Source of the DNA: Candidatus Altarchaeum sp.
GTDB taxonomy: Archaea > Altiarchaeota > Altiarchaeia > Altiarchaeales > Altiarchaeaceae
Assembly: GCA_018260615.1 (NCBI GenBank)
Contig: JAGWDQ010000053.1
Coordinates: 1,286 to 65,285 of the forward strand
Length of the DNA: 64,000 bases
Reading direction: 5' to 3'
A program made the translations under genes and the position numbers. Positions within the stretch are counted from its first letter, which is position 1. Each line of letters starts with the position of its first letter. Below are positions 5,888 through 62,997 of the stretch, in pieces. The notes beneath the pieces are model-generated. The model made no database searches, was not told the origin of the DNA, and saw only the letters and a program-made list of their open reading frames with translations.

Positions 5888-6136
5888 GTAACTATTCAGA
5901 GGGTACGAAAATTTACCGGTAGAAATTTCAAAAAATACAATTTCAAAAATGAAATTTTTGAATACTGAAAATCTCCAAGATTTTCAATCTTACAAAATGT
6001 TTTAAACATTTTGTAAATACACGAACGAAGTGAGCGTAAAAAATCAAAAATTTACCTGTAATTTAAAAACCCCGAGGTTTTTAAAGATTGAAAATCTTAT
6101 AGATTTTCAGTATTTTTTTGGTGGCTGAATAGTTAC
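5888..6136. repeat. composite palindromic repeat cluster (mosaic hairpin family)
   Basis: outer IR gtaactattcag (5888-5899) / ctgaatagttac (6125-6136); inner inverted copies of tactgaaaatctNNNagattttcaatctt; central palindrome tacaaaatgttt-t-aaacattttgta. Confidence 0.8.
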
Positions 6137-6200
6137 TAAAATATTACATTTTTAAAACCTGCTTTTTTTAAAATCGTGTTAAACAAACTAATATAAAGTT

Positions 6201-6408
6201 TATTTAAATACTTAATATATTTTATCATAATATATAATAATAAAAAATAAATTATTTAAATACTTAATATATTTTATCATAATATATAATAATAAAAAAT
6301 AAATTATTTAAATACTTAATATATTTTATCATAATATATAATAATAAAAAATAAATTATTTAAATACTTAATATATTTAATCATAATATATAATAATAAA
6401 AAATAAAA
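6201..6408. repeat. 52-bp tandem repeat x4 immediately upstream of acs
   Basis: unit starts at 6201, 6253, 6305, 6357; near-perfect copies, each with TATA-like tttaaata. Confidence 0.9.
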
Positions 6409-6425
6409 AATTTAAAAACAACAAA

Positions 6426-8504
6426 ATGGCCAACGAAATTAAAAAAACAAGGGGGGGAAACAACACTGGAAATGAAGACAAAACAGCGTTGAGTGAGGCG
6501 GAAATAGCATCACACTGGCAGGATGAGGAATATTTTGAGCCTTCTGAGAAATTTATCAGACAGGCAAATGTGCAGGATGGAGCAATATATGAAAGATTTA
6601 AAGAGGAAAATTTTCCGGAGTGTTTTAATGAATATGCAAATATGCTTACATGGGACAGATACTGGAAAACAACGCTTGATACCAGTAATCCGCCATTCTT
6701 TAAATGGTTTGTCGGTGGAAAATTAAATGTCTGCTACAATTGCGTTGATAGAAATTTGGTGAAGTATAAAAATAAAGCGGCAATAATATGGGTTCCTGAA
6801 CTGGAAGAAGAACATGACAGAGTCATAACATATCAGGAATTGTATGTAAAAGTCAATGAATTTGCATCGCTCCTTCAAGAGCTCGGTTTAAAAGCGGGAG
6901 ACAGAATAACATTCCATTTGCCAATGGTTCCGGAATTGCCAATATCCATGCTCGCATGTGCGCGGCTTGGAATAATACACTCGGAGGTCTTCGGGGGCTT
7001 CAGCGGAAAGGCGTGCGGGGAAAGAATTGCCGATTCCGAAAGTAATATTTTAGTAACAATTGATGGGTATTACCGGGGTGGAAAATTAATTGACCATAAA
7101 GTTAATGCGGATATAGCAGTTGAAACCGCAAAGGCATTGGGGCAGAAAGTAGATAAGGTGCTTATATGGAACAGACATTACGGTAAATATAGTTCGCCGA
7201 CAAAACTTGTAGAAGGAAGGGATTTTCTCGTTGATGACTTACTTAAAAACCATAAAGGAAAGATAGTTGTACCTGTTTCAATGCCTGCCGAAGCAGGACT
7301 TTTTATGATGTATACAAGTGGTTCAACGGGAAAGCCGAAGGGATGCCTGCATAGTACCGGCGGATATCTGGCTTATGTTGCCGGAACATCAAAATATATT
7401 CAGGATATTCATCCGGAAGATGTGTATTGGTGTATGGCAGACATTGGTTGGATTACAGGGCATTCATATATTGTTTATGGTCCTCTTGCTATAGCTGCAA
7501 CATCTGTTATTTATGAAGGAGTTCCAACATATCCCGATGCAAACAGGTCATGGAGAATCGCCGAACGACTGGGAATTAACATATTCCATACGGCACCGAC
7601 AACAATTCGTATGTTAAGAAAAATGGGTTCTAATCCTGAAAAATATAACTGCCACTTTAAGCACATGACAACCGTTGGCGAGCCGATAGAGCCGGATGTG
7701 TGGAGGTGGTATTATCATACTATTGGAAAGAATGAAGCAGTAATAGTTGATACATGGTGGCAAACAGAAAACGGGGGATTTTTATGCAGTACTGTGCCGG
7801 CAGTTAAACCAATGAAGCCGGGAAGTGCGGGTCCGGGGGTGCCGGGAATTTATCCAATCGTATATGATGAAAATGGGAAGGAAATTTCTGCAAGCGCCGG
7901 AAAAGCCGGAAATATATGTATAAAAAATCCCTGGCCCGGAAGAATGCTGACAATATGGAAAAATCCTGAAAGATTGGTAAAAGGATATTATGAAAAGTAC
8001 TGCAAAAACAAAGACAGCAAGGACTGGCAGGACTGGCCATATCTGGCAGGTGACAGCGCAATGCTTGCAAAGGACGGGTACTTTAGGATTTTGGGCAGAA
8101 TAGATGATATTATTAATGTTGCAGGACATCGGCTGGGGACAAAAGAATTAGAATCAGCAGCACTAACCTGTGAGGAAATAGCAGAAGCAGCAGTCGTGCC
8201 AAAAGGGGATGAACTTAAAGGACATATTCCTGACTTATATGTATCTTTAAAACCGGGATTTAAGCAAAGTGAAGAACTGGAAAACAAAGTTAAACAGGCA
8301 GTTGTAAATATAATAGGGCCAATAGCAAGACCAAAGCATGTATATATTGTTCCGGACATGCCAAAGACAAGGAGCGGAAAAATTATGCGGAGAATTCTTA
8401 CAGTCATATCAAATGGCAGAACTGATGTGGGTGATGTAACAACTTTATTGAATCCGGATGTTGTTGAAAAGATACAAAAAATAGTGGGAGGTGACGGATA
8501 TTAA
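6426..8504 (+). CDS. acs: acetyl-CoA synthetase (AMP-forming)
   Basis: YTSGSTGKPKG, TWWQTENGG, PKTRSGKIMRR motifs; 692 aa. Confidence 0.9.
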   Translation: MANEIKKTRGGNNTGNEDKTALSEAEIASHWQDEEYFEPSEKFIRQANVQDGAIYERFKEENFPECFNEYANMLTWDRYWKTTLDTSNPPFFKWFVGGKLNVCYNCVDRNLVKYKNKAAIIWVPELEEEHDRVITYQELYVKVNEFASLLQELGLKAGDRITFHLPMVPELPISMLACARLGIIHSEVFGGFSGKACGERIADSESNILVTIDGYYRGGKLIDHKVNADIAVETAKALGQKVDKVLIWNRHYGKYSSPTKLVEGRDFLVDDLLKNHKGKIVVPVSMPAEAGLFMMYTSGSTGKPKGCLHSTGGYLAYVAGTSKYIQDIHPEDVYWCMADIGWITGHSYIVYGPLAIAATSVIYEGVPTYPDANRSWRIAERLGINIFHTAPTTIRMLRKMGSNPEKYNCHFKHMTTVGEPIEPDVWRWYYHTIGKNEAVIVDTWWQTENGGFLCSTVPAVKPMKPGSAGPGVPGIYPIVYDENGKEISASAGKAGNICIKNPWPGRMLTIWKNPERLVKGYYEKYCKNKDSKDWQDWPYLAGDSAMLAKDGYFRILGRIDDIINVAGHRLGTKELESAALTCEEIAEAAVVPKGDELKGHIPDLYVSLKPGFKQSEELENKVKQAVVNIIGPIARPKHVYIVPDMPKTRSGKIMRRILTVISNGRTDVGDVTTLLNPDVVEKIQKIVGGDGY

Positions 8505-11551: not shown

Positions 11552-11573
11552 AATTCAGGTGGTGATAAACATG

Positions 11574-11870
11574 TAAGGTTGGATGTTAACATTTACATTT
11601 AAATTACAAGCATTTTTGAAAACCTGTAATTTTCAAAAATCTCCGAGTGTAAACGAGGTGATTTATCCCGGAATTTATTTTTAAGAACCTTACTTCTTAA
11701 TCACTACTGAAATTTAAACTATTTGAAAGGGTACAAAAATTACTGAAAATCTGCAAGATTTTCAATCTTTAAAAATCCACAGGATTTTTAAATTACCCGT
11801 GAAAATTTAAAAAACATAAAAATCAAAATTTACCTATAATTTTTTGGGTGAGTGGATAGTAGAGTTGTTG
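11574..11870. repeat. mosaic hairpin repeat cluster
   Basis: contains aaaatctccgagtgtaaacgaggtga, ttactgaaaatctgcaagattttcaatctttaaaaatc and aaaatcaaaatttacct modules shared with 5888-6136 and 15049-15532. Confidence 0.75.
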
Positions 11871-11968: not shown

Positions 11969-14854
11969 TTAACAGATTTCATCTAAAATAACGGGATATA
12001 TGTCCTCAATAATCTTGTTTAAGTCGTTTTCGTTAAAACCAGCGACTTTCAATATTGTTTTATCAAGTTTGAGTCTGTAGTCCTTTTTATCTCTGATTTG
12101 AACATGTATCGGATCAAACTCTAAATCCTCTAATTCATCTAAAAGTTCCATCAGTTCTTTTTTTTCACTGTCTTTTAATTTTTCACTGTCAATAATATCC
12201 ATAAGTACTAAATCCGATTGCGACACACCCATCCAGGAGCCGGTAGTTTCTTTCTTTATCTTAAGAAGTTGTATCCAATATAAGATGCTATTCATATACA
12301 AGCATAATATTTTAGCTTCTTCTTTACCAATGTATGGCAAAACCTCAAAAGAATGGGGAGCAATTATTTTTTCATCGCAACATATTGCTGTGACATATGT
12401 CTCATCAGAATTAAATCTAAATCTATTAGGTATTAATATGTGCGACTCTTTTTTATTTATTTCTTTATTAATGTTTTCCCAAGAAATATCTTTTCCTTTA
12501 TATTTGGATGAGTCAATAATCTCCTGAATGTCCTCGGGTTTTGCTCGTATCATGTAATCAATTTTATCTTTCACATATAAGTTTTTGATGCCGGTTATTG
12601 TTCTGACAGATTTTTTTAAATAAATTTTGTCAATGGAGTACTTTTCTCTTTTGTTTTTAATCTTAAAATCTACACTTTTATCTTTATCACCGTCTAACAC
12701 AAGATGTGCTCTTTTGACTCTACTTTCAGATAACGGATTATTGATAAATAAAATTTGAGAAATGCCCTTAGGTGATGCATGAAATCCCTCTAATATAATA
12801 TCTTTTTCTAATTTTTTTGTTTTATTGCTTAATTTTAACTTTTCTAATACATATTCTATCTTTTTCTTATTTGTAAGATTTTCGGTGAATATGAAAGACA
12901 TCAAATTTTCTTTGGCCATTAAAAGTTCACTCTGCATTACTTTAATTATACTGAAATCACCGGTCTCTTTTTCTTTTTCCCTAACGGTCTCAAGTTCCCT
13001 GACGATTGATTCTATATCCGGGCCGGTATATGTGTCAATTGGTTTGCGAAGTGAGACGATCTTTAACTCGTGATTTGATTCATGCCGTATTTTTTTAGCA
13101 ATTATCATGATGTCTGTAAAGTCAGAATCCTCACTAAACGATGTGTTCCTGTGGGGTTTGATTATATACTTAAAAGAATAATTTTCCAGATAATACTCTC
13201 TAATTTTTTTAGAATCTTCTCCACGCAAAAAGTTAATGGGGATTATTGCACCAATCATTCCCCCAATTTTTAAATTTTTATCAGACAATGCCATGAAATG
13301 TCCCCATACACCTACTCTTCGCCCGGATATCTTATACACCTGTGATTTAAGAAATTCCTCTCTAAGTTTTTCAGGAATATCTTGTATTCTTGTAAATGGA
13401 GGATTTATGACTATTGTGTCTACTTTATCAATTTTGAACATTTTTGCAGGATATTCTTTCTTTGTTGTTTCATCACCGGGAGATTTAAAATCAGATATTG
13501 TTTTTTGCTTTCTGTTAATATGCTCCATAACATTGGAAATATCTCCATATGCTTCTTTAACTTCTATAGGAAGATTAAATAATTCCAGCGAGTTTCTGTT
13601 AGATACTCTGACAAATTTGGTATCAGTGCTCAGGTTTTGAGCAGATAAGTTTAGTCCGGTTAAATGACAGGCAAATGGCATAATATCTGTTCCGGTTAAT
13701 TGTTCTTCTAAAAAATCTCTATGAATATCTTTTTTATCCTCCGATGTTAAAATATTTTTATTCGGGTGAACTTGCAACTTTCTGTTATAACTTTCAACAA
13801 GTAATGTTCCGGAACCACAAGCCATATCCCACACCTTTTCATCCCATGCTTTTATCGTCAGGTTTGTTAATAATTTAGCAGAAGCTGGTTTTGTATAATA
13901 CGATGCTAATACCTCGCGAGTTTCCGCCGGAAGACATTTCCCTATGAGTTTTCCGTAAATGTCCTGTTTCATTTCCTCAATTCCCAAAGGATACAAAACT
14001 GTAATTATGTTATTTATATGTTCTGTAATATCTCCGGTTATCGGAATTTTGGAAATTACATCAATATCAAAAATAGGTTCAAAATTGATTTCTTTTATCT
14101 GATTAAAATAATTATTAAGTTCAGACATCGTCCGGATTTTTTTTATTTCATCTACCTTCCCTGTTTTTTTTGAATATAAAAAATAAAATAGTATCTGGTT
14201 TACAAGAATATAAGAAATCAGATCAATTGCCTGATTTCTAAGTAATTTATCGCTTTTTGTTCTGCTTAATGACAGGAAAAGCCCCTGATCTTTGGTAAGA
14301 AAGTTTACCAGCTCTTTTATCAGTAATTCGTCCTTGTACTCTTTGTTAATTAATTTGGATAAGGACTTTATGCTGCTTTGTAAGACCCCGGATGCCGTCT
14401 CAATATTTTTTGCAGATAATAATTTCTTTTCTATTTTTCCTTTTAACTGAGTTATGGATTCTTTCACTGAAAGGTCCACAAGTTCATCCCATTCCTTTGT
14501 CAAAAATATACATTTACAGGTTCTCTCAATTGCTATTTTATTTATCTCTTCAATAGTGCCTTCTCTTTTTACATCATAAGGGTACACTATTACTATCATA
14601 TTTTTTGTCTCATATTTTAAAGAATACCCATACACCTGGACAATACCTCCTAATAAAGCAGGGCGCAGGTCTTCTTTTTGAGCAGATATTTTAACTTCAA
14701 GAATATATGAGTTGCCTTCATGTTCAAATAGTATGTCCAAATACCTATCTGTGTTTATCGGTTTTACTTCTGAAATTCCTGTAAAACCCAAATTCTCCAA
14801 TAACCTTAAAATAGGTGCATAAAATGAACGCTCTACCGGTCTTATTTTTGTCAT
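11969..14854 (-). CDS. type IIG (MmeI-like) restriction-modification enzyme: N-terminal PD-ExK nuclease + gamma-class N6-adenine MTase + C-terminal specificity region
   Basis: 961 aa; N-terminal DILFE...LEVKIS (D..ExK), motif I DMACGSGTLL, motif IV VINPPFTR. Confidence 0.7.
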   Translation of the reverse strand: MTKIRPVERSFYAPILRLLENLGFTGISEVKPINTDRYLDILFEHEGNSYILEVKISAQKEDLRPALLGGIVQVYGYSLKYETKNMIVIVYPYDVKREGTIEEINKIAIERTCKCIFLTKEWDELVDLSVKESITQLKGKIEKKLLSAKNIETASGVLQSSIKSLSKLINKEYKDELLIKELVNFLTKDQGLFLSLSRTKSDKLLRNQAIDLISYILVNQILFYFLYSKKTGKVDEIKKIRTMSELNNYFNQIKEINFEPIFDIDVISKIPITGDITEHINNIITVLYPLGIEEMKQDIYGKLIGKCLPAETREVLASYYTKPASAKLLTNLTIKAWDEKVWDMACGSGTLLVESYNRKLQVHPNKNILTSEDKKDIHRDFLEEQLTGTDIMPFACHLTGLNLSAQNLSTDTKFVRVSNRNSLELFNLPIEVKEAYGDISNVMEHINRKQKTISDFKSPGDETTKKEYPAKMFKIDKVDTIVINPPFTRIQDIPEKLREEFLKSQVYKISGRRVGVWGHFMALSDKNLKIGGMIGAIIPINFLRGEDSKKIREYYLENYSFKYIIKPHRNTSFSEDSDFTDIMIIAKKIRHESNHELKIVSLRKPIDTYTGPDIESIVRELETVREKEKETGDFSIIKVMQSELLMAKENLMSFIFTENLTNKKKIEYVLEKLKLSNKTKKLEKDIILEGFHASPKGISQILFINNPLSESRVKRAHLVLDGDKDKSVDFKIKNKREKYSIDKIYLKKSVRTITGIKNLYVKDKIDYMIRAKPEDIQEIIDSSKYKGKDISWENINKEINKKESHILIPNRFRFNSDETYVTAICCDEKIIAPHSFEVLPYIGKEEAKILCLYMNSILYWIQLLKIKKETTGSWMGVSQSDLVLMDIIDSEKLKDSEKKELMELLDELEDLEFDPIHVQIRDKKDYRLKLDKTILKVAGFNENDLNKIIEDIYPVILDEIC

Positions 14855-15048
14855 CTTTTTCTTTTTTATATGTAAATTTTTCTTTTTTAATGAGATGAAC
14901 TTGTGTTATAACTTTTTATTTAAACAATTATGAATAAGATAAAAGATTATTGTAACCTATTAGCACATACAAATAAATACATGAAACATAAAAAATAACA
15001 CACCGAAATTTTCCTTTTCAACATTTTATCCTGGTGGAATGATTTTTT

Positions 15049-15532
15049 ATCGTACAGGAAAGTTCGTTTTATTATCCTCACACCAAGACACAGTCACCTC
15101 GCTATTCACCTCGCTGTTGTTCGGAGATTTAAAAAAATCTGTTGATTTTTAAAATACTGAAAATCTGTAAGATTTTCAATCTTTAAAAATCTGTTGATTT
15201 TTAAATCACCTCATTTCATTCGGAGATTTTCAAAACTCTCACCTCGCTGTTGCTCGGAGATTTTCAAAACTTCGCGTTTTGAAAATGCGATTTGAAAATG
15301 CTCGGAGATTTTCAAATCTCTCACCTCGCTCCTGCTCGGAGATTTTCAAAACTTCGCGTTTTGAAAATGCGTTTTGAAAATAAGTTCGCTTCGCTCTCAT
15401 TTAAAAATGCTACAAGCATTTTTAAAGATTGAAAACTTATAGTTTTCAGTATATTTTCAAAATCTTTGCGATTTTGAAAAAGACACAAAGGAGTTATATT
15501 CTGTAACTTGGTGACTTTGTGGCTTTGTGTGA
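15049..15532. repeat. largest mosaic hairpin repeat cluster
   Basis: contains tcacctc-N-tcggagattttcaaaa (4 copies), attttcaaaac-ttcgc-gttttgaaaat hairpins, tactgaaaatctgtaagattttcaatcttt and its inverted copy, an ~84-bp internal duplication, and cacaaag modules that overlap the 3' end of CDS 15494..16384. Confidence 0.85.
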
Positions 15533-16384
15533 ATATTCTTCTGATTTTTTTAAAATTTTTTCAATAATCTTTTCCGACCTTGAACCATACTGCATCGCCT
15601 TCTTTTTTCTCTTAACAATAAATTCGGGAACGCCTATATTTTCGGCCAACTTCCTCAATATAAATTTTCTGATAAATTTCTTCCCTTCAACAATATCAAT
15701 TGTTTCGGCAAATTCATCAATATATTCATCACCTTCATCACCTTTCACCTCATAAATTTTAAATTCCATCGGAATGTTCATTGCATAGTCCGAAAAATTT
15801 TTCTCCATATAAGGAAATTTCAGACAAATTTTGTTAAATGCACACATTGCTATGTCCCTGTTCAGATTCTCTTTATAAGCGATGTTTATGTCATTTTTCA
15901 TCGCAATAAGCCGTTCATCTTCATTCATTCTTAAATATCTCGCATAGCCGCCAAAAATTTCATCTGCTCCCTGACCGGATAGCATAACTTTTATGCCGTC
16001 TTCGCCTGCCTTTTTTGAAGCAAAGTAAATCGGAACTGCCGTTGATAAATTTAATCTGGTTATTTCAATATTGTTGTCCTTTAAAATTTTGACTATGTTT
16101 TCAATTTCATTTTTGACATCGTTCTCTGTAATAAGGACAATTTTCGTATTCGTCAAATTTAGGGTCTTAAATTTCCGGGCAAAAATGACATCTTCGGATT
16201 CATAAGTTCCGACGGTATAAGCAGAGACACTGGAAAATTTATTCGCTAACATTGCAATGATCGTTGAATCAATTCCGGCGGAAAATACAACTCCTGTTTT
16301 CTTTTCATCGCCGCTCGCCTGCTTAACTGCATCGTCTAATAAATTTTTTAAATTTAAATGTCTTGGAGCATAATCGTTTTTCAT
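15494..16384 (-). CDS. asparagine synthase-like PP-loop ATPase (synthetase domain only)
   Basis: start moved to MKNDYAPR (ATG 16384) to avoid overlapping the divergent gene; PP-loop VVFSAGIDST; the last ~12 codons (SHKATKSPSYRI*) lie inside a dispersed repeat module. Confidence 0.6.
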   Translation of the reverse strand: MKNDYAPRHLNLKNLLDDAVKQASGDEKKTGVVFSAGIDSTIIAMLANKFSSVSAYTVGTYESEDVIFARKFKTLNLTNTKIVLITENDVKNEIENIVKILKDNNIEITRLNLSTAVPIYFASKKAGEDGIKVMLSGQGADEIFGGYARYLRMNEDERLIAMKNDINIAYKENLNRDIAMCAFNKICLKFPYMEKNFSDYAMNIPMEFKIYEVKGDEGDEYIDEFAETIDIVEGKKFIRKFILRKLAENIGVPEFIVKRKKKAMQYGSRSEKIIEKILKKSEEYSHKATKSPSYRI

Positions 16385-16865: not shown

Positions 16866-16910
16866 AATATCAAAAATTTTTGTTGCCTGTATTTTGCCTG
16901 ATTTTGAAAT

Positions 16911-17837
16911 TTAGTTTTCTTGTTCAGTTATAATTTCGGGTTCCGGATAATCAAAGTCCGGTTTTTCCTCAAATAGTTTCTTTTGTTTGATTACCTCGTT
17001 GATTCTTGTCAGTGCAGTTTCGCAATATTTCTTAGATATGTCTATACCTATAAATCTTCTTTTCAATTTGAAGGCGACTAATGTTGTGGTTCCGGCGCCA
17101 TTAAACGGATCTAAAACTATATCTCCTTTGTAAGAAAATAATTTCAAAGCTCTTTTTGGTAGTTCTTCCGGAAACATTGCCGGATGCCCAAAGTCCTTCA
17201 TTTTCGTCTCAGGAGTAAATTTCCACTTTGCATAAACACATTCTTTAAATTCTTCACCGGTTATATCAATATGTTCTTTTTTACCTGTTTTTTTATGGGT
17301 TTCTTTATCAAAAATTTCTATAAACTCCCAGGTGTATTTTAAATAAGGCATTGACGGTGATTTCCAGCTTCCCCACGCCGTGTATTTTGCATTATAATTA
17401 TTTTTTTCCCATAATACTTCAGCTTTCCATAAAAAGCCCAAATCAAGTAATTGCTTTGAAATTATATGGTGTGTCGGTACATAATCAGAAAATAACGGCT
17501 GGACATTTACTATTATTCTTCCGCCGGGTTTTATTATCCTGTAACATTCTTTCCAGACAACAAATAATTTTTTAAAATATTCGTTCCATTCTTTTGTATC
17601 CTGTGTTGTATCGTTTGCATAACTATGACCAAAGTTATAGGGTGGTGAAGTTAATACTATATCTATAGAATTAGATGGAATCTTAGATAGTACCTTTTCA
17701 GCATCGCCTACTATGATTTTATTGTTCAACTTTTTAATATCCGGATTTTCAACTGAAAAAATATCTTTCTTTTCTTCTTTTGTACCTTTTCTTATCTTCT
17801 CTTTTATTCCTTTATCTTTTATTTTTTCGGGGCTCAT
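16911..17837 (-). CDS. beta-class N4-cytosine/N6-adenine DNA methyltransferase
   Basis: motif IV DIVLTSPPYNF precedes motif I LDPFNGAGTT (beta-class order); 4-nt overlap with the upstream REase fragment. Confidence 0.85.
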   Translation of the reverse strand: MSPEKIKDKGIKEKIRKGTKEEKKDIFSVENPDIKKLNNKIIVGDAEKVLSKIPSNSIDIVLTSPPYNFGHSYANDTTQDTKEWNEYFKKLFVVWKECYRIIKPGGRIIVNVQPLFSDYVPTHHIISKQLLDLGFLWKAEVLWEKNNYNAKYTAWGSWKSPSMPYLKYTWEFIEIFDKETHKKTGKKEHIDITGEEFKECVYAKWKFTPETKMKDFGHPAMFPEELPKRALKLFSYKGDIVLDPFNGAGTTTLVAFKLKRRFIGIDISKKYCETALTRINEVIKQKKLFEEKPDFDYPEPEIITEQEN

Positions 17838-18657
17838 AATATTTTACCTTCTTTAATAAGTTTTTGTTCTATATTTGACCAGTCCCTTTCTAAGTGATTT
17901 CTAACAAATTTGAAAAGATCTTTTACTACTTCAAAATCTATGGGTTTACTATTCTTACTCTTTCTTTTTTCTTTTCTCAAAACATAAATTTGGTTAATTC
18001 TTGAATAAGCAGGATCAACATCCAAACTCACATCATAACATTCTGTAATCACGAGAAATAAACAATAAGGATTGCCATTTTTTATTTTTTCGGCAGTAGC
18101 AATTGAACCCTCAAGCATTGTTTTATCAATGTATGTTTTGCATTCAATAGAAACAACAGGAACATTAATCAATTTTTGTTCTCCATCCGCTTTTATCAAA
18201 ATTGTCCGGTAAATGGCAAAGTCCTGGTCCTTTTCATTAATCTTCATATTCGGCGTTTTGATGAAGTCCACCAAATTCTCCGGTGCAAAATATAAATTAC
18301 TGTACGCCCTTGTGTCACCTAATTGTATTTTTTTAATCTCCTCGCTAAATAATATAAGAATTCTTCCGGGACAGTTGAATGAAATTTAGATTGTGCGGAA
18401 AAATCTACATTTTTAATCTCGTTTTTATAATCATTCAACCACTTGACTCTTTGATTTATCGCATCATCCGAATATTCGGTTAGGATTTCATTATTATTAT
18501 TCCATTCTTTATATTTTTCAATAACTTTTTGCAGTTGCTTTTTTTGAGTAGTAAACAAAATAGATGATATCTGCAATTTTGCAAGTATGTTTCTTCCATG
18601 AATATGAGATTTGTTTAAATTTTCTTTAAACCAAGCAATTTCTTTTTCCATAGTCAT
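17834..18657 (-). pseudogene. type II restriction endonuclease split into two ORFs (18319..18657 and 17834..18274) at an A7/T7 homopolymer
   Basis: upstream ORF ends ...FHSTVPEEFLYYLARRLKKYN*; the frame of the downstream ORF is open back through the T7 run at 18328-18334; adding one A would fuse them; downstream part has an ExK-like SIECK motif. Confidence 0.55.
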
Positions 18658-19744: not shown

Positions 19745-19930
19745 ATGGACACAAAAATTAAGAGCCGTCCAAAGGAGGATTTACTGCTTTTGAAGAAAAT
19801 CGAAAGTTCAATGCTTCAGGATGATATTGCCACTTTGGAAGAAGTGAAAAAAGCGTGGAACGAAATCGAAAGGGGAAAATGTATGTCATCTTCTAAGAAG
19901 GAATTTCTTGCTGATCTTAAAAAATGGTAG
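19745..19930 (+). CDS. small hypothetical protein (61 aa)
   Basis: ORF only; its C-terminal half is duplicated in the next ORF. Confidence 0.35.
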   Translation: MDTKIKSRPKEDLLLLKKIESSMLQDDIATLEEVKKAWNEIERGKCMSSSKKEFLADLKKW

Positions 19931-19970: not shown

Positions 19971-20153
19971 ATGGAAAACACAACTAATTTGGATGAACAG
20001 ATAATTGAATCATGGGACAATTCAAAAATATTTGAAAGCAATAAAATAACAAATTCTCTTAAAGAGTTAAAAAAAGCATGGAAAGAAATAGAATCAGGAA
20101 AATGTCAGTTAGATTCCAAGCAGAAATTTCCTGCCGAACTTGAAAAATGGTAA
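19971..20153 (+). pseudogene. chimeric ORF: diverged copy of leuS codons 1-25 fused to a copy of the C-terminal half of ORF 19745..19930
   Basis: MENTTNLDEQIIESWDNSKIFESN vs leuS MENTTKFLDEQIIESWSNSKIFESN; LKELKKAWKEIESGKCQLDSKQKFPAELEKW vs LEEVKKAWNEIERGKCMSSSKKEFLADLKKW. Confidence 0.6.
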
Positions 20154-22994: not shown

Positions 22995-22998
22995 ACGA

Positions 22999-23063
22999 GC
23001 TCACACAAAGACACAGGGACACAAAGATAAGTCATCTGTGACTTTGTGGCTCTGTGTGAGAGC
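22999..23063. repeat. cacaaag-type hairpin repeat
   Basis: ctcacacaaagacacagggacacaaag...ctgtgactttgtggctctgtgtgag; arms ctcacaca/tgtgtgag and cacaaag/ctttgtg; starts 5 nt after the leuS stop. Confidence 0.8.
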
Positions 23064-23129
23064 AATATGACATAGTGTAAATAAATTCATAAATTTATTG
23101 TAATTATTCACTTCAAACTAATATTTAAG

Positions 23130-30131: not shown

Positions 30132-30171
30132 ATAAAGTTGTAGTACTGGAAAGTTTGTTTTATTTTATGAG

Positions 30172-30229
30172 CCTCACACGGAGACACGGAGACACAAAGG
30201 GGAAATACACTCTGTGACTTTGTGTGAGC
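30172..30229. repeat. cacaaag-type hairpin repeat
   Basis: ctcacacggagacacggagacacaaag...ctgtgactttgtgtgag; same family and same orientation as 22999..23063. Confidence 0.8.
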
Positions 30230-30235
30230 ATTCTT

Positions 30236-32289: not shown

Positions 32290-32650
32290 CAAGATTTTGA
32301 AATTTTTGAAATATCCGAACGATTTTAAAATCCTCAAAGGATTTTTAAATACACGATTTTCAAAACTGCGGTTTTCAAATCGCATTTTCAAAACGCAGAG
32401 TTTTGAAAATCTCCGAGCAAGAGCGAGGTGAGAGTTTTGAAAATCTCCGAACGATTTTCAAAATCGCAGAGTTTTGAAAATACACGAACGAAGTGAGCGT
32501 AAGTGAGGTGAAGTTTTGAAAAGACACGAACAAAGTGAGCGGAACGAAGTGAGCGTAAGTGAGGTTATTTTTAAAATTGCAGAAATTTTAAAAATGCACG
32601 ATTTACAAACGAAGTGAGTGGAATGGCAGTGAGCGTAAGTGAAGTGACAT
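32290..32650. repeat. mosaic hairpin repeat cluster abutting the IS left end
   Basis: ttttgaaaatctccgagcaagagcgaggtga; repeated cgaacgaagtgagcgtaagtgaggtga units; ttttcaaaacgcagagttttgaaaat hairpins. Confidence 0.85.
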
Positions 32651-39448: not shown

Positions 39449-39675
39449 TCTGTGTTTTTCATTGGTCACTCACACGAGACACAGTCACCTCACTTACACT
39501 CATTTTTCAAACGATTTCGTTTGAAAAATCCACGAACAAAAGTGAGCGGACTTCGTTCATGTATTTTAAATTTTCTACAAATTTAAAATCGTTCGGAGAT
39601 TTTCAAAATACTCTGTGGCTTTGTGTGATTTCAAAATCTTGCAGATTTTGAAATCTCCGAACGAAGTGAGGTGAA
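39449..39675. repeat. mosaic hairpin repeat cluster
   Basis: tcactcacacgagacacagtcacctcac, ttttcaaacgatttcgtttgaaaaa hairpin, gttcggagattttcaaaa, ctctgtggctttgtgtga, ttttgaaatctccgaacgaagtgaggtga. Confidence 0.85.
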
Positions 39676-39951: not shown

Positions 39952-40075
39952 TATACCTGAGTTTGAAAGATATTTAAAAAATGTCTAAAAACACCTTTAA
40001 AATTGTCTTTTTGTTGCCATGTCAATTTTACAATTTTAAAGGTCAAAACCCCATAACTTTCAAAGACAGGTTATA
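39952..40075. mobile_element. 124-bp MITE-like element, copy 2
   Basis: internal sequence identical by eye to 739..862; flanked by ttatac on both sides; 128 bp downstream of tRNA-Ser. Confidence 0.7.
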
Positions 40076-40841: not shown

Positions 40842-40969
40842 ATGTTTAAAGGATGGTTTTTAAACAGCAGATTTTGACATAGTGTTATATATTTTGCTGT
40901 CACGAAAAATTGCGGCGGTGAAATTGGTTTAAATTGCAATATGTAGTATGGGAATGCAATAACGCTTTT

Positions 40970-43614: not shown

Positions 43615-43704
43615 TTTATTTTAGTAAATTTAAGTAAAAAGTTGATAAATTTACTATGATAGTAATTAGTTTTATAACTAATTAATTAGTGTTCATCCGC
43701 AAAG

Positions 43705-43850
43705 TATAAAATTTTGAAAAAATTTTAACTTTTAAACGGTAATTTAAAAATCGCAAAGATTTTTAAAGATTAAAAACTTATAGTTTTTTAGTAATTATTA
43801 TGTTTTTAACCTCGCTTATGCTCGGATATTTACTCATTTCATTCGTAAAT
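43705..43850. repeat. mosaic hairpin repeat cluster (degenerate)
   Basis: tttttaaagattaaaaacttatagttttttagta (degenerate inverted tactgaaaa module) and aacctcgcttatgctcggatattt. Confidence 0.6.
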
Positions 43851-43890
43851 GGCAAAAATTGTTCGTTTATGGATAGACACTAATTAAATT

Positions 43891-48395: not shown

Positions 48396-48729
48396 AATCA
48401 GAAGAATACTCACACAAAGTCACAAAGCCACCAGGTTACAAAATATAACTCCTCTGTGTCTCTGCGTCCTGGTGTGAGAGGACAATAAAATTAGAATACT
48501 ACTCACACAAAGCCACAAAGCCACAGAGTATTTTAAAATCAAGAGATTTTAAAAGATTGAAAATCTCACAGATTTTCAGTATTTAAAAAATCTCACAGAT
48601 TTTTTAAAGATTGAAATCTCAAAGTTTTCAGTATAACATCTTTTGTGTCTCTGTGTCTTGGTGTGAGGAACTAATAAAAAACTTATACTTTATAGAATAG
48701 TAAAAAATAATAAAATATTCACACAAAGA
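48396..48729. repeat. mosaic hairpin repeat cluster
   Basis: atcagaagaatactcacacaaagtcacaaagccaccaggttacaaaatataactcc..., two inverted tactgaaaa modules, cttttgtgtctctgtgtcttggtgtgagg; ends with tcacacaaag directly before the next ATG. Confidence 0.85.
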
Positions 48730-49116
48730 ATGATGAATGAAAATGAAATTGGAAAAATTATAGTTAATGCAGCAGTTGAAATACATAAAGAATTTGGACC
48801 CGGACTACTTGAAACGGTTTATGAGGTCATGCTCGCGTATAAACTTGAAAAACAAGGATTATCAGTCAAGCGACAAGTATCCGTTCCGATAGAATATGAA
48901 GGAATGAAATTTGACGAAGCTTTCAGAGTGGATATTTTTGTTGAGAATAAGGTGCTCATTGAGTTAAAGTCAGTTGAAGTAGTCAATAAAGCACATAAGA
49001 AACAAGTTTTGACTTATTTACGGTTGACAGGATGTAAGCTCGGATATCTGCTTAATTTTGGTGAGTTCTTGATGAAAGATGGAATATCAAGAATAATCAA
49101 TGGAGAAATAAATTAA
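48730..49116 (+). CDS. GxxExxY-family protein (PD-(D/E)xK superfamily)
   Basis: GPGLLETVYE (GxxExxY), VDIFVENKVLIELK, LTYLRLTGCKLGYLLNF. Confidence 0.85.
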   Translation: MMNENEIGKIIVNAAVEIHKEFGPGLLETVYEVMLAYKLEKQGLSVKRQVSVPIEYEGMKFDEAFRVDIFVENKVLIELKSVEVVNKAHKKQVLTYLRLTGCKLGYLLNFGEFLMKDGISRIINGEIN

Positions 49117-49122
49117 ATATTT

Positions 49123-49170
49123 TTCACATCTTTGTGCCTTTGTGTCTCTGTGTGAGAATGTAATAAAACA
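49123..49170. repeat. cacaaag-type repeat fragment
   Basis: ttcacatctttgtgcctttgtgtctctgtgtgag directly after the GxxExxY stop. Confidence 0.7.
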
Positions 49171-49207
49171 AGAATCATAAAGTTTATAAAAAAATAAAAA
49201 ACAAATT

Positions 49208-50251: not shown

Positions 50252-50282
50252 AACGGCTAAATTTAGCTAAATTTAAATAAAT

Positions 50283-50436
50283 CAGAAGAATACTCACACA
50301 TACTGAAACCTTCGGTTTCAATCTTTAAAAAACTACAAGTTTTTTAAAAAGCCACAAAGCCACAGAGCAACATTGCCCTTTGTGTCTCCTTGTCTTGGTG
50401 TGAGAGAACAATAAAACGAACTTTCCTGTACGATAA
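50283..50436. repeat. mosaic hairpin repeat cluster
   Basis: cagaagaatactcacacatactgaaaccttcggtttcaatctttaaaaa, gccacaaagccacagag, cctttgtgtctccttgtcttggtgtgagagaacaataaaacgaactttcctgtacgat (reverse complement of 15049-15090). Confidence 0.85.
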
Positions 50437-50448
50437 ATAAATTTTTGT

Positions 50449-59581: not shown

Positions 59582-59692
59582 ATGACTAACGATGCCTTAA
59601 ATGACGCAGTAGATGCCTTACAAAAAGGAAATTTTATAATAATTCACGATGCAGACAGCAGAGAAAACGAATGCTATCCGCCTTTTCTTTGA
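59582..59692 (+). pseudogene. orphan diverged copy of ribB codons 1-31 ending in repeat-derived sequence
   Basis: MTNDALNDAVDALQKGNFIIIHDADSRENEC|YPPFL* vs ribB MLNKAIKSLREGNFIIIHDADSRENEC; homology ends at 59674. Confidence 0.65.
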
Positions 59693-59750
59693 AAGAAAAT
59701 CACCTCACTTCGTTCGGAGATTTTCAAAATTTCATTTTGAAAATGCGGGC
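59675..59750. repeat. mosaic repeat module between the ribB 5' fragment and ribB
   Basis: atcacctcacttcgttcggagattttcaaaatttcattttgaaaatgcgg. Confidence 0.8.
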
Positions 59751-59786: not shown

Positions 59787-60458
59787 ATGCTCAATAAAGC
59801 CATAAAATCATTAAGGGAAGGAAATTTCATAATCATCCACGATGCCGACAGCAGAGAAAACGAATGCGATTTTGTAATTGCAGCGGAATTTATAAAGCCG
59901 GAACATGTAGCGAGAATGAGAACCGAAGGGGGAGGAATGATTTGCCTTGCTGTGTCAGGAGAAATTGCCGAAATGACAGGAATGCCTTTCTTTTCAGAGA
60001 TTCGTGATTTTGCATCTGAAAAATTTAAAGTGCTTGAAAAAATGACAGATAATGATTTGAAATATGATAAAAAGTCGGCGTTTTCAATAAATATAAATTT
60101 CAGGGGTGTATTTACAGGAATCAGTGACTTTGACAGGGCATTGACGATTAAAAAATTTGCGGATTTCGCAAGAAATTTAAAAGAGGAGAAAAACCAGAAT
60201 ATGAATGAATTTGCGAAAAATTTCAGAACTCCTGGGCATGTTCATTTACTGATTTCAAGGGGGATTGAAAACAGAGCGGGACATACGGAATTAGCAACGG
60301 AAATCTTGAAAATTGCCGGATTAACTCCTGTTGCGGCTATTTGTGAAATTTTAGACGGTGAGATATTTAAGGCAAAAAGCAAAGAGAAGGTGTTTGAGTA
60401 TGCGAATAGACATAACATTCCGGTTGTTGAAGGGAGGGAAATTTTGAAAAATTTATAA
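59787..60458 (+). CDS. ribB: 3,4-dihydroxy-2-butanone-4-phosphate synthase
   Basis: DSRENECDFVIAAE and RAGHTE motifs. Confidence 0.9.
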   Translation: MLNKAIKSLREGNFIIIHDADSRENECDFVIAAEFIKPEHVARMRTEGGGMICLAVSGEIAEMTGMPFFSEIRDFASEKFKVLEKMTDNDLKYDKKSAFSININFRGVFTGISDFDRALTIKKFADFARNLKEEKNQNMNEFAKNFRTPGHVHLLISRGIENRAGHTELATEILKIAGLTPVAAICEILDGEIFKAKSKEKVFEYANRHNIPVVEGREILKNL

Positions 60459-60895: not shown

Positions 60896-61111
60896 GTTGC
60901 GAAATAATTTTCAATCTATTGTTATTTTAAATTTATTTAAAATCTCCGAACAGAGTGAGGTGACAATATATTTACAACAATTATGAATTTTTTCCCTCAT
61001 TTTAAATTTATTTAAAATCTCCGAGCAACAGCGAGGTGATAAAAAAATAAATTTTAAGAGGGTTAATCTATTGTCATAGTATAAAATAGCTCATATAAAC
61101 TATTTCGCAAC
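60896..61111. mobile_element. 216-bp insertion bounded by an 11-bp inverted repeat, carrying two mosaic repeat modules
   Basis: gttgcgaaata (60896-60906) / tatttcgcaac (61101-61111); inside are two copies of ttttaaatttatttaaaatctccgaNc...gaggtga; contains both stop codons that interrupt the surrounding frame. Confidence 0.5.
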
Positions 61112-62088: not shown

Positions 62089-62706
62089 CTACAAAAATTT
62101 CAAAATTTCCCTTAAATCCTTGTTGCGAATTACCGCATCTGCATTTTCCACAACGCTGTCATGTTTCGGATTAAATGCAATACTGAATCCCGCCTTTTTA
62201 AACATAGGAATATCATTGATAAAGTCGCCTACTGCAATACATTCACTTAAATCAATATTTTCCGATTTTGCTATTTTCTCTAAAATTTCTCCTTTATTTT
62301 CAAAATTTACCTTCATATTGACATCAAAAATTTTTTCATCCTTAACTATTATTTCATTTGCATAACAGTGGCTGAAGGTGTATTTTTCAAAAATTTTATT
62401 TGCCATCTGTTTTATGCCGCCGCTTATAATTGCCAGCTTATAATTTTTACTTAAATTTTTAATTACTTCTATCCCTTTCATTACTTCAACTTTTTTACCT
62501 GCTTCAAAAATTTTGTTTGCATCAATTCCCTTCCATAATCCGATATCCCGCCTTACCCATTCATCAAAGGATATATTGCCAGAATAGTATTGCCTTCCGT
62601 TCTCTTCGGAAAATTTTTCCGTGCCTATAAATTTGTGCAGTTCCATCCAGCTTCCTTTTCCGTCAAGGAGGACGCCGTCAAGGTCAAATGCGATTAAATT
62701 TGCCAA
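62089..62706 (-). CDS. HAD-IB family hydrolase (phosphoserine phosphatase-like)
   Basis: motif I FDLDGVL, motif III GDFINDIPMFKKAGFSIAFNPK; TTG start. Confidence 0.75.
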   Translation of the reverse strand: MANLIAFDLDGVLLDGKGSWMELHKFIGTEKFSEENGRQYYSGNISFDEWVRRDIGLWKGIDANKIFEAGKKVEVMKGIEVIKNLSKNYKLAIISGGIKQMANKIFEKYTFSHCYANEIIVKDEKIFDVNMKVNFENKGEILEKIAKSENIDLSECIAVGDFINDIPMFKKAGFSIAFNPKHDSVVENADAVIRNKDLREILKFL

Positions 62707-62997
62707 TTTTAGAAAAATTTTAAGTTAAAAAATTTTAAGTTAGAAATTAAAAGCAATTTAAAATCTTTTTAATGTTTGCTTTTTTCTTTTTTCGGCGTAT
62801 TTTTTCTTTTTCTAAAAGAAAAAAGTGCGTCACAATGCGATTAAATTTGCCAATTTTAGAAAAATTTTAAGTTAAAAAATTTTAAGTTAGAAATTAAAAG
62901 CAATTTAAAATCTTTTTAATGTTTGCTTTTTTCTTTTTTCGGCGTATTTTTTCTTTTTCTAAAAGAAAAAAGTGCGTCACAATGCGATTAAATTTTT
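62688..62997. repeat. 147-bp perfect tandem repeat x2 plus a partial third copy, including the first 6 codons of the HAD gene
   Basis: unit starts at 62688, 62835 and 62982; units 1 and 2 identical by eye. Confidence 0.9.

Follow-up and report, generated by a model that had tools for sequence, protein, structure and literature searches.

A 64,000-nucleotide stretch of the Candidatus Altiarchaeum chromosome (contig JAGWDQ010000053.1, positions 1,286 to 65,285; hereafter the window, with all coordinates counted from its first letter) contains thirteen clusters of short repeats, which together make up 2,688 nt, or 4.2%, of its length. In our assessment, these clusters are probably small, transposase-less mobile DNA that inserts into intergenic spacers and into one another. 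They form a nested mosaic of miniature transposable elements with inverted repeats (MITEs) and of hairpin cassettes similar to palindrome-associated transposable elements (PATEs) or repetitive extragenic palindromes (REPs), and this mosaic has been active recently. While the MITE families and hairpin cassettes described here are new, the kind of selfish DNA to which they belong is already known, and they do not represent a new system. Their closest known counterpart is the repertoire of MITEs, PATEs and small mobile repeats (SMRs) in the archaeon Haloquadratum; REPs, the bacterial interspersed mosaic elements (BIMEs) and BOX elements of bacteria are also comparable. Such repeats have rarely been described in archaea, and their host, an abundant archaeon of the deep subsurface that fixes carbon, is uncultivated; its genomes are known only as fragmented metagenome-assembled genomes (MAGs).

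The window carries an archaeal signal recognition particle (SRP) RNA, has a G+C content of about 33% and matches contigs of two MAGs from Horonobe groundwater, PHAJ01 (‘Euryarchaeota archaeon HGW-Euryarchaeota-1’) and PHDY01, with 98–99% DNA identity, while its proteins recur on the Joint Genome Institute (JGI) metagenome contig Ga0246099_100195. Judging by these sequence matches, we place it in the Horonobe/HGW lineage of Candidatus Altiarchaeum. A sequence-only reading of the window had described a dispersed, hairpin-forming mosaic family with six modules, A to F, and in this respect it was accurate. All six modules were located at or beside the positions it gave, in numbers far above those expected from 100 dinucleotide-preserving shuffles of the window: the module A hairpin has five exact matches (expected 0.00), the module B arm 14 (expected 0.06) and the module C core TCGGAGATTTTCAAAA 13 (expected 0.29), which rules out low-complexity, AT-rich similarity as their source. 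A BLAST-coverage map, for which the window was compared with itself and with other Altiarchaeum DNA, recovered 12 of the 13 clusters, the remaining one (22999–23063) being found by pattern matches and not by this map. The density in the window amounts to ~110 B elements and ~140 A hairpins per Mb. According to the gene calls for the window, the clusters lie in 13 of the 32 intergenic spacers that measure 90 nt or more, with just 51 nt overlapping genes; they occur in both orientations and mostly adjoin stop codons. The focal cluster, around 15049–15532, folds far better than its shuffles (z = -8.9 as DNA, -7.7 as RNA), with the outer arms paired and enclosing the inner hairpins. At the gathering score, Rfam 15 yields only the SRP RNA and two tRNAs in the window, and only one tRNA in seven array-bearing loci.

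The family is not confined to the window. We scanned one genome for each of 185,579 species (GTDB) with a pattern for module A, TACTGAAA-N7-13-TTTCAATCTTTAAA, and obtained at least 59 stretches, all but one of them in three Candidatus Altiarchaeum MAGs (CG2_30_32_3053, A3 and GA_1_1), many at contig ends and some in arrays of ~50-nt period. This identifies the host as an Altiarchaeum and the family as genus-wide and lineage-specific, and a local duplication is ruled out. The viral contigs of IMG/VR gave zero matches to the A or B patterns and thus no sign of a virus-borne origin.

The outer layer of the mosaic is best seen in the B element, a MITE of ~95–151 nt in its uninvaded form that has no coding capacity for a transposase. 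Its arms are imperfect, inverted, 25–30 nt long and built of CACA(A/G)AG heptamers, with a left tail CAGAAGAATA and a right tail AATAAAACGAACTTTCCTGTACGA. These arms (CTCACACAAAGNCACARAG), found 14 times in inverted pairs, are subterminal, and the outermost 10–25 nt are unlike between the two ends. The focal copy (15050..15543, minus strand) is a composite of 494 nt that includes a nested block of cassettes; read on the minus strand, its outer ends are CAGAAGAATATTCACACAAAG... and ...GGTGTGAGGATAATAAAACGAACTTTCCTGTACGA. The orthologous site is empty in three other Altiarchaeum loci (L063, L064 and L065; L numbers designate loci used for comparison), and these empty sites contain a single T(G)AAAAAT, where the window has TAAAAAA(A)T twice: the low copy of this target-site duplication, TAAAAAAT, lies at 15042..15049 and the high copy, TAAAAAAAT, at 15544..15552, both given for the minus strand. 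The insert starts with CAGAAGAATATTCACACAAAGCCACAAAG and finishes with GGTGTGAGGATAATAAAACGAACTTTCCTGTACGA, and it follows from its boundaries and sequence that a single element has module B as its arms, F as its loop and E as its tail. The six modules are thus not the equivalent units as which they had been presented, since A and C/D are separate cassettes nested in such elements.

At this site, the insertion has also changed a protein. In L063–L065, an asparagine-synthase-like gene ends ...GAAAAAATTTTGAAAAATCATTCC..., and the sequence downstream resumes like the window at ~15040. The homology of the window gene to every orthologue stops at ~15546; its last 17 codons (15494..15545, minus strand; KSEEYSHKATKSPSYRI and stop) are read from the inserted element and stand in for the native last 8–9 codons.

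A second B element with both full ends spans 151 nt (50283..50433, plus strand) and is flanked by TAAATAAAT at 50274–50282 and 50434–50442. It is missing from L130, a locus of the sister sample 3300029891 with flanks 88–94% identical to those of the window, where one TAAATAAAT is present. Target duplications of B are thus established by comparison of filled and empty sites at two places, and strains are polymorphic for the insertion. The composite at 48399..48700 (plus strand) consists of a minimal B (~48399–48490) and a second B with two A units; its flanks are TAAAAAAAT, which includes the TAA stop of an aspartate kinase gene, and TAAAAAAT. Between the window, L131 and L130, it differs in the number of B units (1, 3 or 4, with an 85-nt period) and of A units (2 or 3). 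The preferred target of B is TAAAWAAAT-like and is duplicated over 7–9 bp; as such targets often contain or follow a TAA stop, the copies sit directly after genes.

The remaining copies are simpler or incomplete. Minimal B copies measure ~95 nt, and their arms alone fold no better than shuffles. A minimal B-like element that consists of arms only (22996..23066, plus strand; fold z = -4.1) directly follows the stop of the leucyl-tRNA synthetase (LeuRS) gene, and an older B element (30138..30232, minus strand) fills the spacer between convergent ftsZ-like and phosphorylase genes, a spacer that in species GA_1_1 (L020) is occupied by another repeat cluster, over 600 nt long. A truncated B left end, AATATTCACACAAAG (48712–48726), is found just upstream of a GxxExxY gene, which was recognized by Pfam (PDDEXK_3), and a B right end identified by alignment (49123..49175, plus strand) lies downstream of it.

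The 249-nt element at 5888..6136 (plus strand) is a MITE as well. It had been singled out before as a nested palindrome, which proved exact: its terminal inverted repeats GTAACTATTCAG are perfect over 12 nt, it is bounded by a direct duplication of 8 bp, TAAAATAT, and it contains two inverted A units (5963–6016 and 6086–6136). Like B, it combines small size (below ~500 bp), inverted repeats and target duplications, the features by which MITEs are recognized. L029 and L059 hold copies of its context without each of the A units.

The second layer is formed by cassettes of ~45–54 nt, which are devoid of terminal inverted repeats, nest inside MITEs and build head-to-tail arrays. The A unit, 48–54 nt in length, is a twin hairpin with H1 (TACTG-stem-CAATC) at its 5′ end and H2 (TTTAAAA-stem-TTTTAAA) at its 3′ end; its terminus TACTG is no inverted copy of the opposite terminus, TTTAAA. 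In the Altiarchaeum DNA examined, we counted 186–192 copies of H1. The stems fall into several classes (ATCT/AGAT, CC/GG, ACT/AGT and ATTCT/AGAAT), in all of which complementarity is kept; 90% of cells in the alignment of copies are paired, and A DNA folds with z = -4.7 to -6.3. When the flanks of each unit or array were joined and uninterrupted matches to them were sought, ten comparisons of filled and empty sites in eight unrelated contexts emerged, with exact boundaries and not a single duplicated base. These contexts include three MITE families, a B arm, the junction GAAAATA|TGAGAGCG and the arm of another hairpin, and the sites are A/T-rich and very often lie inside other repeats. For instance, the left arm of the B element at 50283–50433 contains an A unit (50301..50349, plus strand; CTCACACA|...|AGCCACAAAG), while the arm at 48409–48427 is uninterrupted; the same composite of B with A is also found in species A3 (L029). 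The junction GAAAATA|TGAGAGCG has no unit in its paralogous copies in L006 and L010, one in the window and four in L011; arrays at other places are longer.

A screen of indels between paralogous repeats recovered further discrete cassettes of the C/D type, 45–46 nt long, single and in tandem, which combine a D hairpin with either a C box or a GAACGAAGTGAGCG box. They contribute to the block of 388 nt (15094..15481, minus strand) that interrupts the right arm of the focal B element with no duplication at its junctions, as seen against the uninterrupted arms at 48450–48478 and 48640–48667. The components of this block are D hairpins, C boxes (TCACCTC-N-TCGGAGA), a tandem duplication of 82 nt (15220–15299 and 15302–15381) and two A units: one at 15155..15205 (plus strand; H1 TACTGAAAATCTGTAAGATTTTCAATC and H2 TTTAAAAATCTGTTGATTTTTAAA; DNA fold z = -6.3), and one at 15401..15451 (minus strand; H1 15427–15451, H2 15401–15426), which occupies the above junction GAAAATA|TGAGAGCG. 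A public gene call places an open reading frame (ORF) of 64 aa at 15129–15323 (minus strand), wholly within the repeat cluster; this call is almost certainly spurious. We also considered whether the GAGGTGA of the C box is a Shine-Dalgarno site, and rejected this idea as no start codon lies at the right spacing.

The filled and empty sites bear directly on the question whether the cassettes move at all. They might be immobile, minisatellite-like sequences, comparable to the mycobacterial interspersed repetitive units with variable numbers of tandem repeats (MIRU-VNTRs), which spread only by slippage, unequal recombination and gene conversion, and passively inside MITEs. Such an origin would agree with the strain-dependent copy number of the arrays, with the existence of an H2/H1 hybrid unit, with the identical apex that neighboring H1 and H2 often have in common, and with the A unit being a fixed internal part of several MITE families. 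Yet solo units with the same exact ends occur in eight unrelated contexts, flanking direct repeats by which slippage or a precise deletion could operate are missing, and one unit sits inside a single B copy among many uninterrupted ones, so that we regard immobility as unlikely. Among known repeats of this modular, intergenic type, the BOX elements of Streptococcus pneumoniae and the MIRU-VNTRs of Mycobacterium tuberculosis resemble the cassettes in having an inner unit of ~45–50 nt and a strain-variable copy number. BOX elements share the strong hairpin potential of the cassettes, but have defined A and C end modules, and MIRUs are not hairpin pairs; the sequences of both are unrelated to the cassettes. 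Like the cassettes, neither BOX elements nor MIRU-VNTRs have a known parent transposon, but neither of them is known to nest inside MITEs.

The clusters are probably explained by layered insertions of non-autonomous mobile elements, MITEs and hairpin cassettes, into the Altiarchaeum chromosome. In the first layer, a B element would integrate via a staggered cut and thereby duplicate 7–9 bp of its TAAAWAAAT-like target. It may be moved in trans by the DDE transposase of an insertion sequence (IS) with matching ends, which would imply an IS bounded by CAGAAGAATAYTCACACAAAG ... CGAACTTTCCTGTACGA with duplications of 8–9 bp; an autonomous IS with B-type ends was found neither in the window nor in the Altiarchaeum loci compared. 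In the second layer, the A unit would insert precisely and with no target duplication into A/T-rich sites; the C/D-type cassettes likewise appear as discrete indels. These cassettes may be moved as single-stranded hairpins by an HUH/Y1 enzyme of the IS200/IS605 type, as PATEs and REPs are. Local recombination could then change the length of the head-to-tail arrays. Altiarchaeota reportedly have the highest median IS content among the archaeal phyla (PMC13343696), and IS200/IS605 is the commonest IS family in archaea.

Candidates for a parent or a gene of B were considered, but none was adopted. In L129, a DDE_5-like IS with its own 51-nt inverted repeats adjoins the same GxxExxY gene and B left end as in the window, but it is unrelated to B. 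The GxxExxY nuclease gene of the window (PDDEXK_3; 48730–49116), which has the truncated left end of B on one side and a full right end (49131–49175) on the other, was not adopted as B’s own gene: it is single-copy in the Altiarchaeum DNA examined, and has homologs with 80–85% identity in many bacterial phyla. These are spread across Nitrospinota, Armatimonadota, Planctomycetota, Pseudomonadota and Pacearchaeota, a distribution that suggests frequent horizontal transfer; the gene may have been transferred separately and have landed in, or been captured by, a B element.

Several observations weigh against layered mobility. The window contains no transposase of any kind, and no Y1- or RAYT-like gene (RAYT, REP-associated tyrosine transposase) was found in ~0.48 Mb of Altiarchaeum DNA, a weak test given that the sample was partial and the MAGs are fragmented. 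In tblastn, IS608 TnpA and Escherichia coli RAYT as queries gave only chance-level matches, the best being a thymidylate kinase. Multi-copy ORFs across the loci turned out to be ordinary genes or spurious ORFs through repeats and included no mobilizing enzyme, and a Pfam scan of 150 ORFs (the first of two batches, of 150 and 145 ORFs) showed no transposase among the 25 most-matched families listed. Likewise, the four ORFs bracketed by A units are not transposase-like; one is rich in tetratricopeptide repeats (TPRs), two are membrane proteins as predicted from sequence and one is RNA-ligase-like by Pfam. The left flanks of A end in TTT, AAA, ATA, GAA or ACA and thus show no conserved tetranucleotide, unlike the fixed target of IS608-type elements, which in IS608 itself is TTAC, 5′ of the left end; this counts against a classical IS608-like mechanism for the cassettes. 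For any single pair of filled and empty sites, moreover, we infer the direction of the event, which may be insertion or precise loss. Part of the array variation is due to recombination rather than transposition, as illustrated by the H2/H1 hybrid unit in L130. Finally, covariation within one length class is weak and is equaled by a control with the partners shifted by one column, as the stems consist of A/T runs; we do not use this result as evidence of selection.

The layered arrangement has a precedent in Haloquadratum walsbyi, in which MITEs with terminal inverted repeats and target duplications, PATEs and SMRs exist side by side, and mobile elements preferentially insert into other mobile elements (PMC3119063). 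The PATEs of this organism have no terminal inverted repeats but palindromes near both ends, generate no target duplication and lack the length needed to encode a transposase (PMC3119063). In Altiarchaeum, we likewise find several transposase-less families and nesting, and the A unit exhibits all four of these PATE features. It differs from PATEs in its small size, its tendency to form arrays, and in having neither a fixed target nor a demonstrated IS605-type parent. The PATEs of Haloquadratum far exceed the A unit (48–54 nt) in length and are connected with recognizable parents of the IS605 type. The Haloquadratum description also contains neither head-to-tail arrays, which in Altiarchaeum reach six or more units, nor cassettes of 45–54 nt from which several MITE families are built. 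Altiarchaeum belongs to a different phylum and has ~32% G+C.

The comparison with REPs, BIMEs and REPINs (REP doublets) and their RAYTs in enterobacteria and Pseudomonas (PMC2817692, PMC3116915, PMC3733652) leads to a mixed result. Altiarchaeum cassettes share with these bacterial elements the short, extragenic hairpins with complementary stems, the high copy number, the insertion with no target duplication, the mosaic clustering and the bias to gene 3′ ends. The label ‘BIME/REP-like’ that the sequence-only reading had given to the repeats can therefore be retained as an analogy, which extends to their precise insertion and their insertion into repeats. It does not hold as a statement of membership, that is, of true REPs or BIMEs whose palindromes are spread by a RAYT and used by the host. 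The characteristic GTAG/CGTC foot is absent, the heads being TACTG, TTTAAAA and TTTTCAAAA and the ends TACTG...CAATC and TTTAAAA...TTTTAAA; the stems are A/T-rich rather than G+C-rich; and the arrays run head-to-tail (H1-H2, ~50-nt period) instead of alternating as inverted pairs with linkers. Furthermore, the weak search described above revealed neither a RAYT/Y1 gene nor a lookalike bracketed by inverted units, the MITE of which modules B, E and F are parts has inverted ends and a target duplication, and the host is an archaeon; in the main text of the paper that defined the GTAG/CGTC super-families of REPs, archaea go unmentioned. True REPs or BIMEs are therefore very unlikely. A looser relationship is conceivable, although we advance it only tentatively: the A unit and its D/C-box relatives could be an archaeal counterpart of REPs, i.e. 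minimal single-strand hairpin cassettes moved by an enzyme that needs no fixed target and prefers the ends of existing units, which would give rise to head-to-tail arrays, and the host may have co-opted them as orientation-independent 3′-end signals.

The distribution of the repeats relative to genes raises the question of such host functions more generally. Just four of 186 H1 copies lie within ORFs, even though 74% of the DNA is coding, and the spacers occupied are 13 of 41 convergent, 21 of 130 tandem and 2 of 42 divergent ones (convergent vs. divergent, p = 0.0016). This pattern fits insertions that are tolerated at gene 3′ ends, but it would fit a terminator-like role, too. In the latter case, the elements would have spread by selection rather than by mobility, with the T-run hairpins serving as bidirectional terminators or 3′ stabilizers of mRNA, or with the TTTAAAAA palindromes serving as TATA-like protein-binding sites. 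T4–T6 runs are indeed present on both strands of every hairpin, and stem complementarity is kept across the variants. Against a host-selected origin, we note that presence and absence differ between near-identical strains, that units are inserted inside one another and in the arms of MITEs, and that a gene has lost its native end to one copy. From species to species, orthologous spacers contain different repeats, which argues against a conserved site-specific function, the orientation of A units relative to transcription is unbiased (21 vs. 28), two clusters of the window lie in divergent spacers, and purifying selection against insertions would be expected to deplete promoter regions just as well. 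Taken together, we deem it quite unlikely that the elements arose as host-selected signals. Under the layered insertion of mobile elements that we favor, effects on the host are probably secondary; candidates are changes to protein C-termini, potential signals for termination and disrupted gene order.

[quoted passage not shown] This origin is refuted by the absence of unique spacers, the period being that of two hairpins, and by the published Altiarchaeum CRISPR repeats GTTTAAATCGCACTATGTAGTATGGAAAC and GTTTGAATAGAACCAGTGTGGTATTGAAAT, which are unrelated to the modules and match any of them at no more than 6–8 bases. In addition, there are no cas genes in the window and no CRISPR arrays at the Altiarchaeum loci compared, and we accord a CRISPR origin practically no credence. 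The earlier observation that a regular repeat-spacer periodicity is absent from the window is borne out by these results. A solitary match to the published Altiarchaeum CRISPR repeat DR1 does exist at 40927–40955 (25 of 29 positions; GTTTAAATTGCAATATGTAGTATGGGAAT), in a convergent spacer; as neither an array nor cas genes lie in its vicinity, it is an orphan repeat.

Besides B, the window contains at least three further MITE families with inverted ends, that of 5888–6136 included, and target duplications were seen for two of them. One of them, 115 nt long with the ends CCTGAGTTTGAAAG ... CTTTCAAAGACAGG, is present in two copies (744–858 and 39956–40070) that are 100% identical but have different 5-bp target duplications, TATAC and TTATA, which points to very recent transposition. 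A further family is represented by a 206-nt MITE at 43682..43887 (plus strand) with terminal inverted repeats TTAATTAGTGT(T/C)CATCC and one A unit; it has more than eight copies at other Altiarchaeum loci, and the copy in L052 lacks precisely the A unit. The cluster at 11559..11870 (plus strand) combines a solo IS1-like terminal repeat, GGTGGTGATAAACATGTAAGG, with a D hairpin and C box (11615–11661) and an A unit (11741–11793). The same terminal repeat borders an IS1-like remnant in L064, and contig L133 ends within this cluster.

The other clusters are dominated by cassettes of the C/D type. An array of D hairpins, C boxes and GAACGAAGTGAGCG boxes occupies 32290..32650 (plus strand) and is 91–95% complementary to 15216–15380. 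B-arm fragments, D hairpins and C boxes are found at 39449..39675 (plus strand), upstream of tRNA-Ser, and two C boxes (AAAATCTCCGA-N-GAGGTGA) at 60925..61040 (plus strand). At 59700..59750 (plus strand), a solo cassette of C box and D hairpin adjoins a truncated copy of the 5′ end of ribB, the gene for 3,4-dihydroxy-2-butanone 4-phosphate (DHBP) synthase; this copy (59594–59677) is 84 nt long, lies just upstream of the cassette and is 78% identical to the real start (59793–59870).

These elements matter beyond the window in several respects. Since many contigs end inside them, the repeats are a main cause of the fragmentation of Altiarchaeum MAGs; they alter protein C-termini and mark gene-order breaks, and as they differ between sister populations, they can be used to tell strains apart and to trace recent transposition. 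In a census of prokaryotic MITEs, Candidatus Altiarchaeum hamiconexum ranked first among archaea with 146 conserved MITEs per Mb, and the main text of that study neither describes individual families nor separates MITEs from duplication-free hairpin cassettes (PMC11602168). What had been a statistic, the highest MITE density among archaea, can now be resolved into defined families with sequences, ends, target sites and empty sites. With the cassettes, there is also a clear-cut system in which to ask by which enzyme duplication-free hairpins are moved in archaea.

In the course of these comparisons, we noticed a number of neighboring features. In the Crystal Geyser species, A-unit arrays at four loci (L032, 943–1170; L012; L056; L061) have immediately upstream of them a conserved, G+C-richer, non-coding element of ~230–250 nt, which has no Rfam match at the gathering score and does not occur in the window. 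A further repeat, ending near ...GGTGGCTACATCTATATAAA..., is 97–98% identical between L032 (1341–1534), L006 (7378–7571) and L063 (11358–11551), where it follows the empty asparagine-synthase site; it probably represents an IS or MITE terminus belonging to Crystal Geyser-type species. The window encodes two restriction-modification systems, an Eco57I-like type IIG enzyme (11969–14854) and a Bpu10I-like endonuclease with an N4/N6 methyltransferase (16910–18270). The type IIG gene has repeat clusters on both sides and is missing at this place in L063–L065. In L136 (4510–6693), which comes from a related genome, the phenylalanyl-tRNA synthetase (PheRS) gene and ribB are adjacent, and in the window a peptidase-M6/NosD gene of 903 aa lies between them.

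Several tandem repeats and duplications are present as well. An A/T-rich 52-nt repeat in five to six copies (6137–6448) directly precedes the start codon of an acetyl-CoA synthetase gene; an apparent 222-nt polymorphism between the window and Ga0246099_100195 at this repeat is merely a scaffold gap of Ns. A 35-nt repeat in three copies (AAATTTAAATCAAAATTTAAAC...; 2233–2337) lies in the divergent spacer of the genes for deoxyhypusine synthase and ribosomal protein L30. The start of a haloacid dehalogenase (HAD) hydrolase gene (62089–62706, minus strand) is overlapped by a perfect tandem duplication of 147 nt (62687–62980), and two adjacent, paralogous small genes of 61 and 60 aa (19745–19930 and 19971–20153), with ~76% DNA identity, are found upstream of the LeuRS gene.

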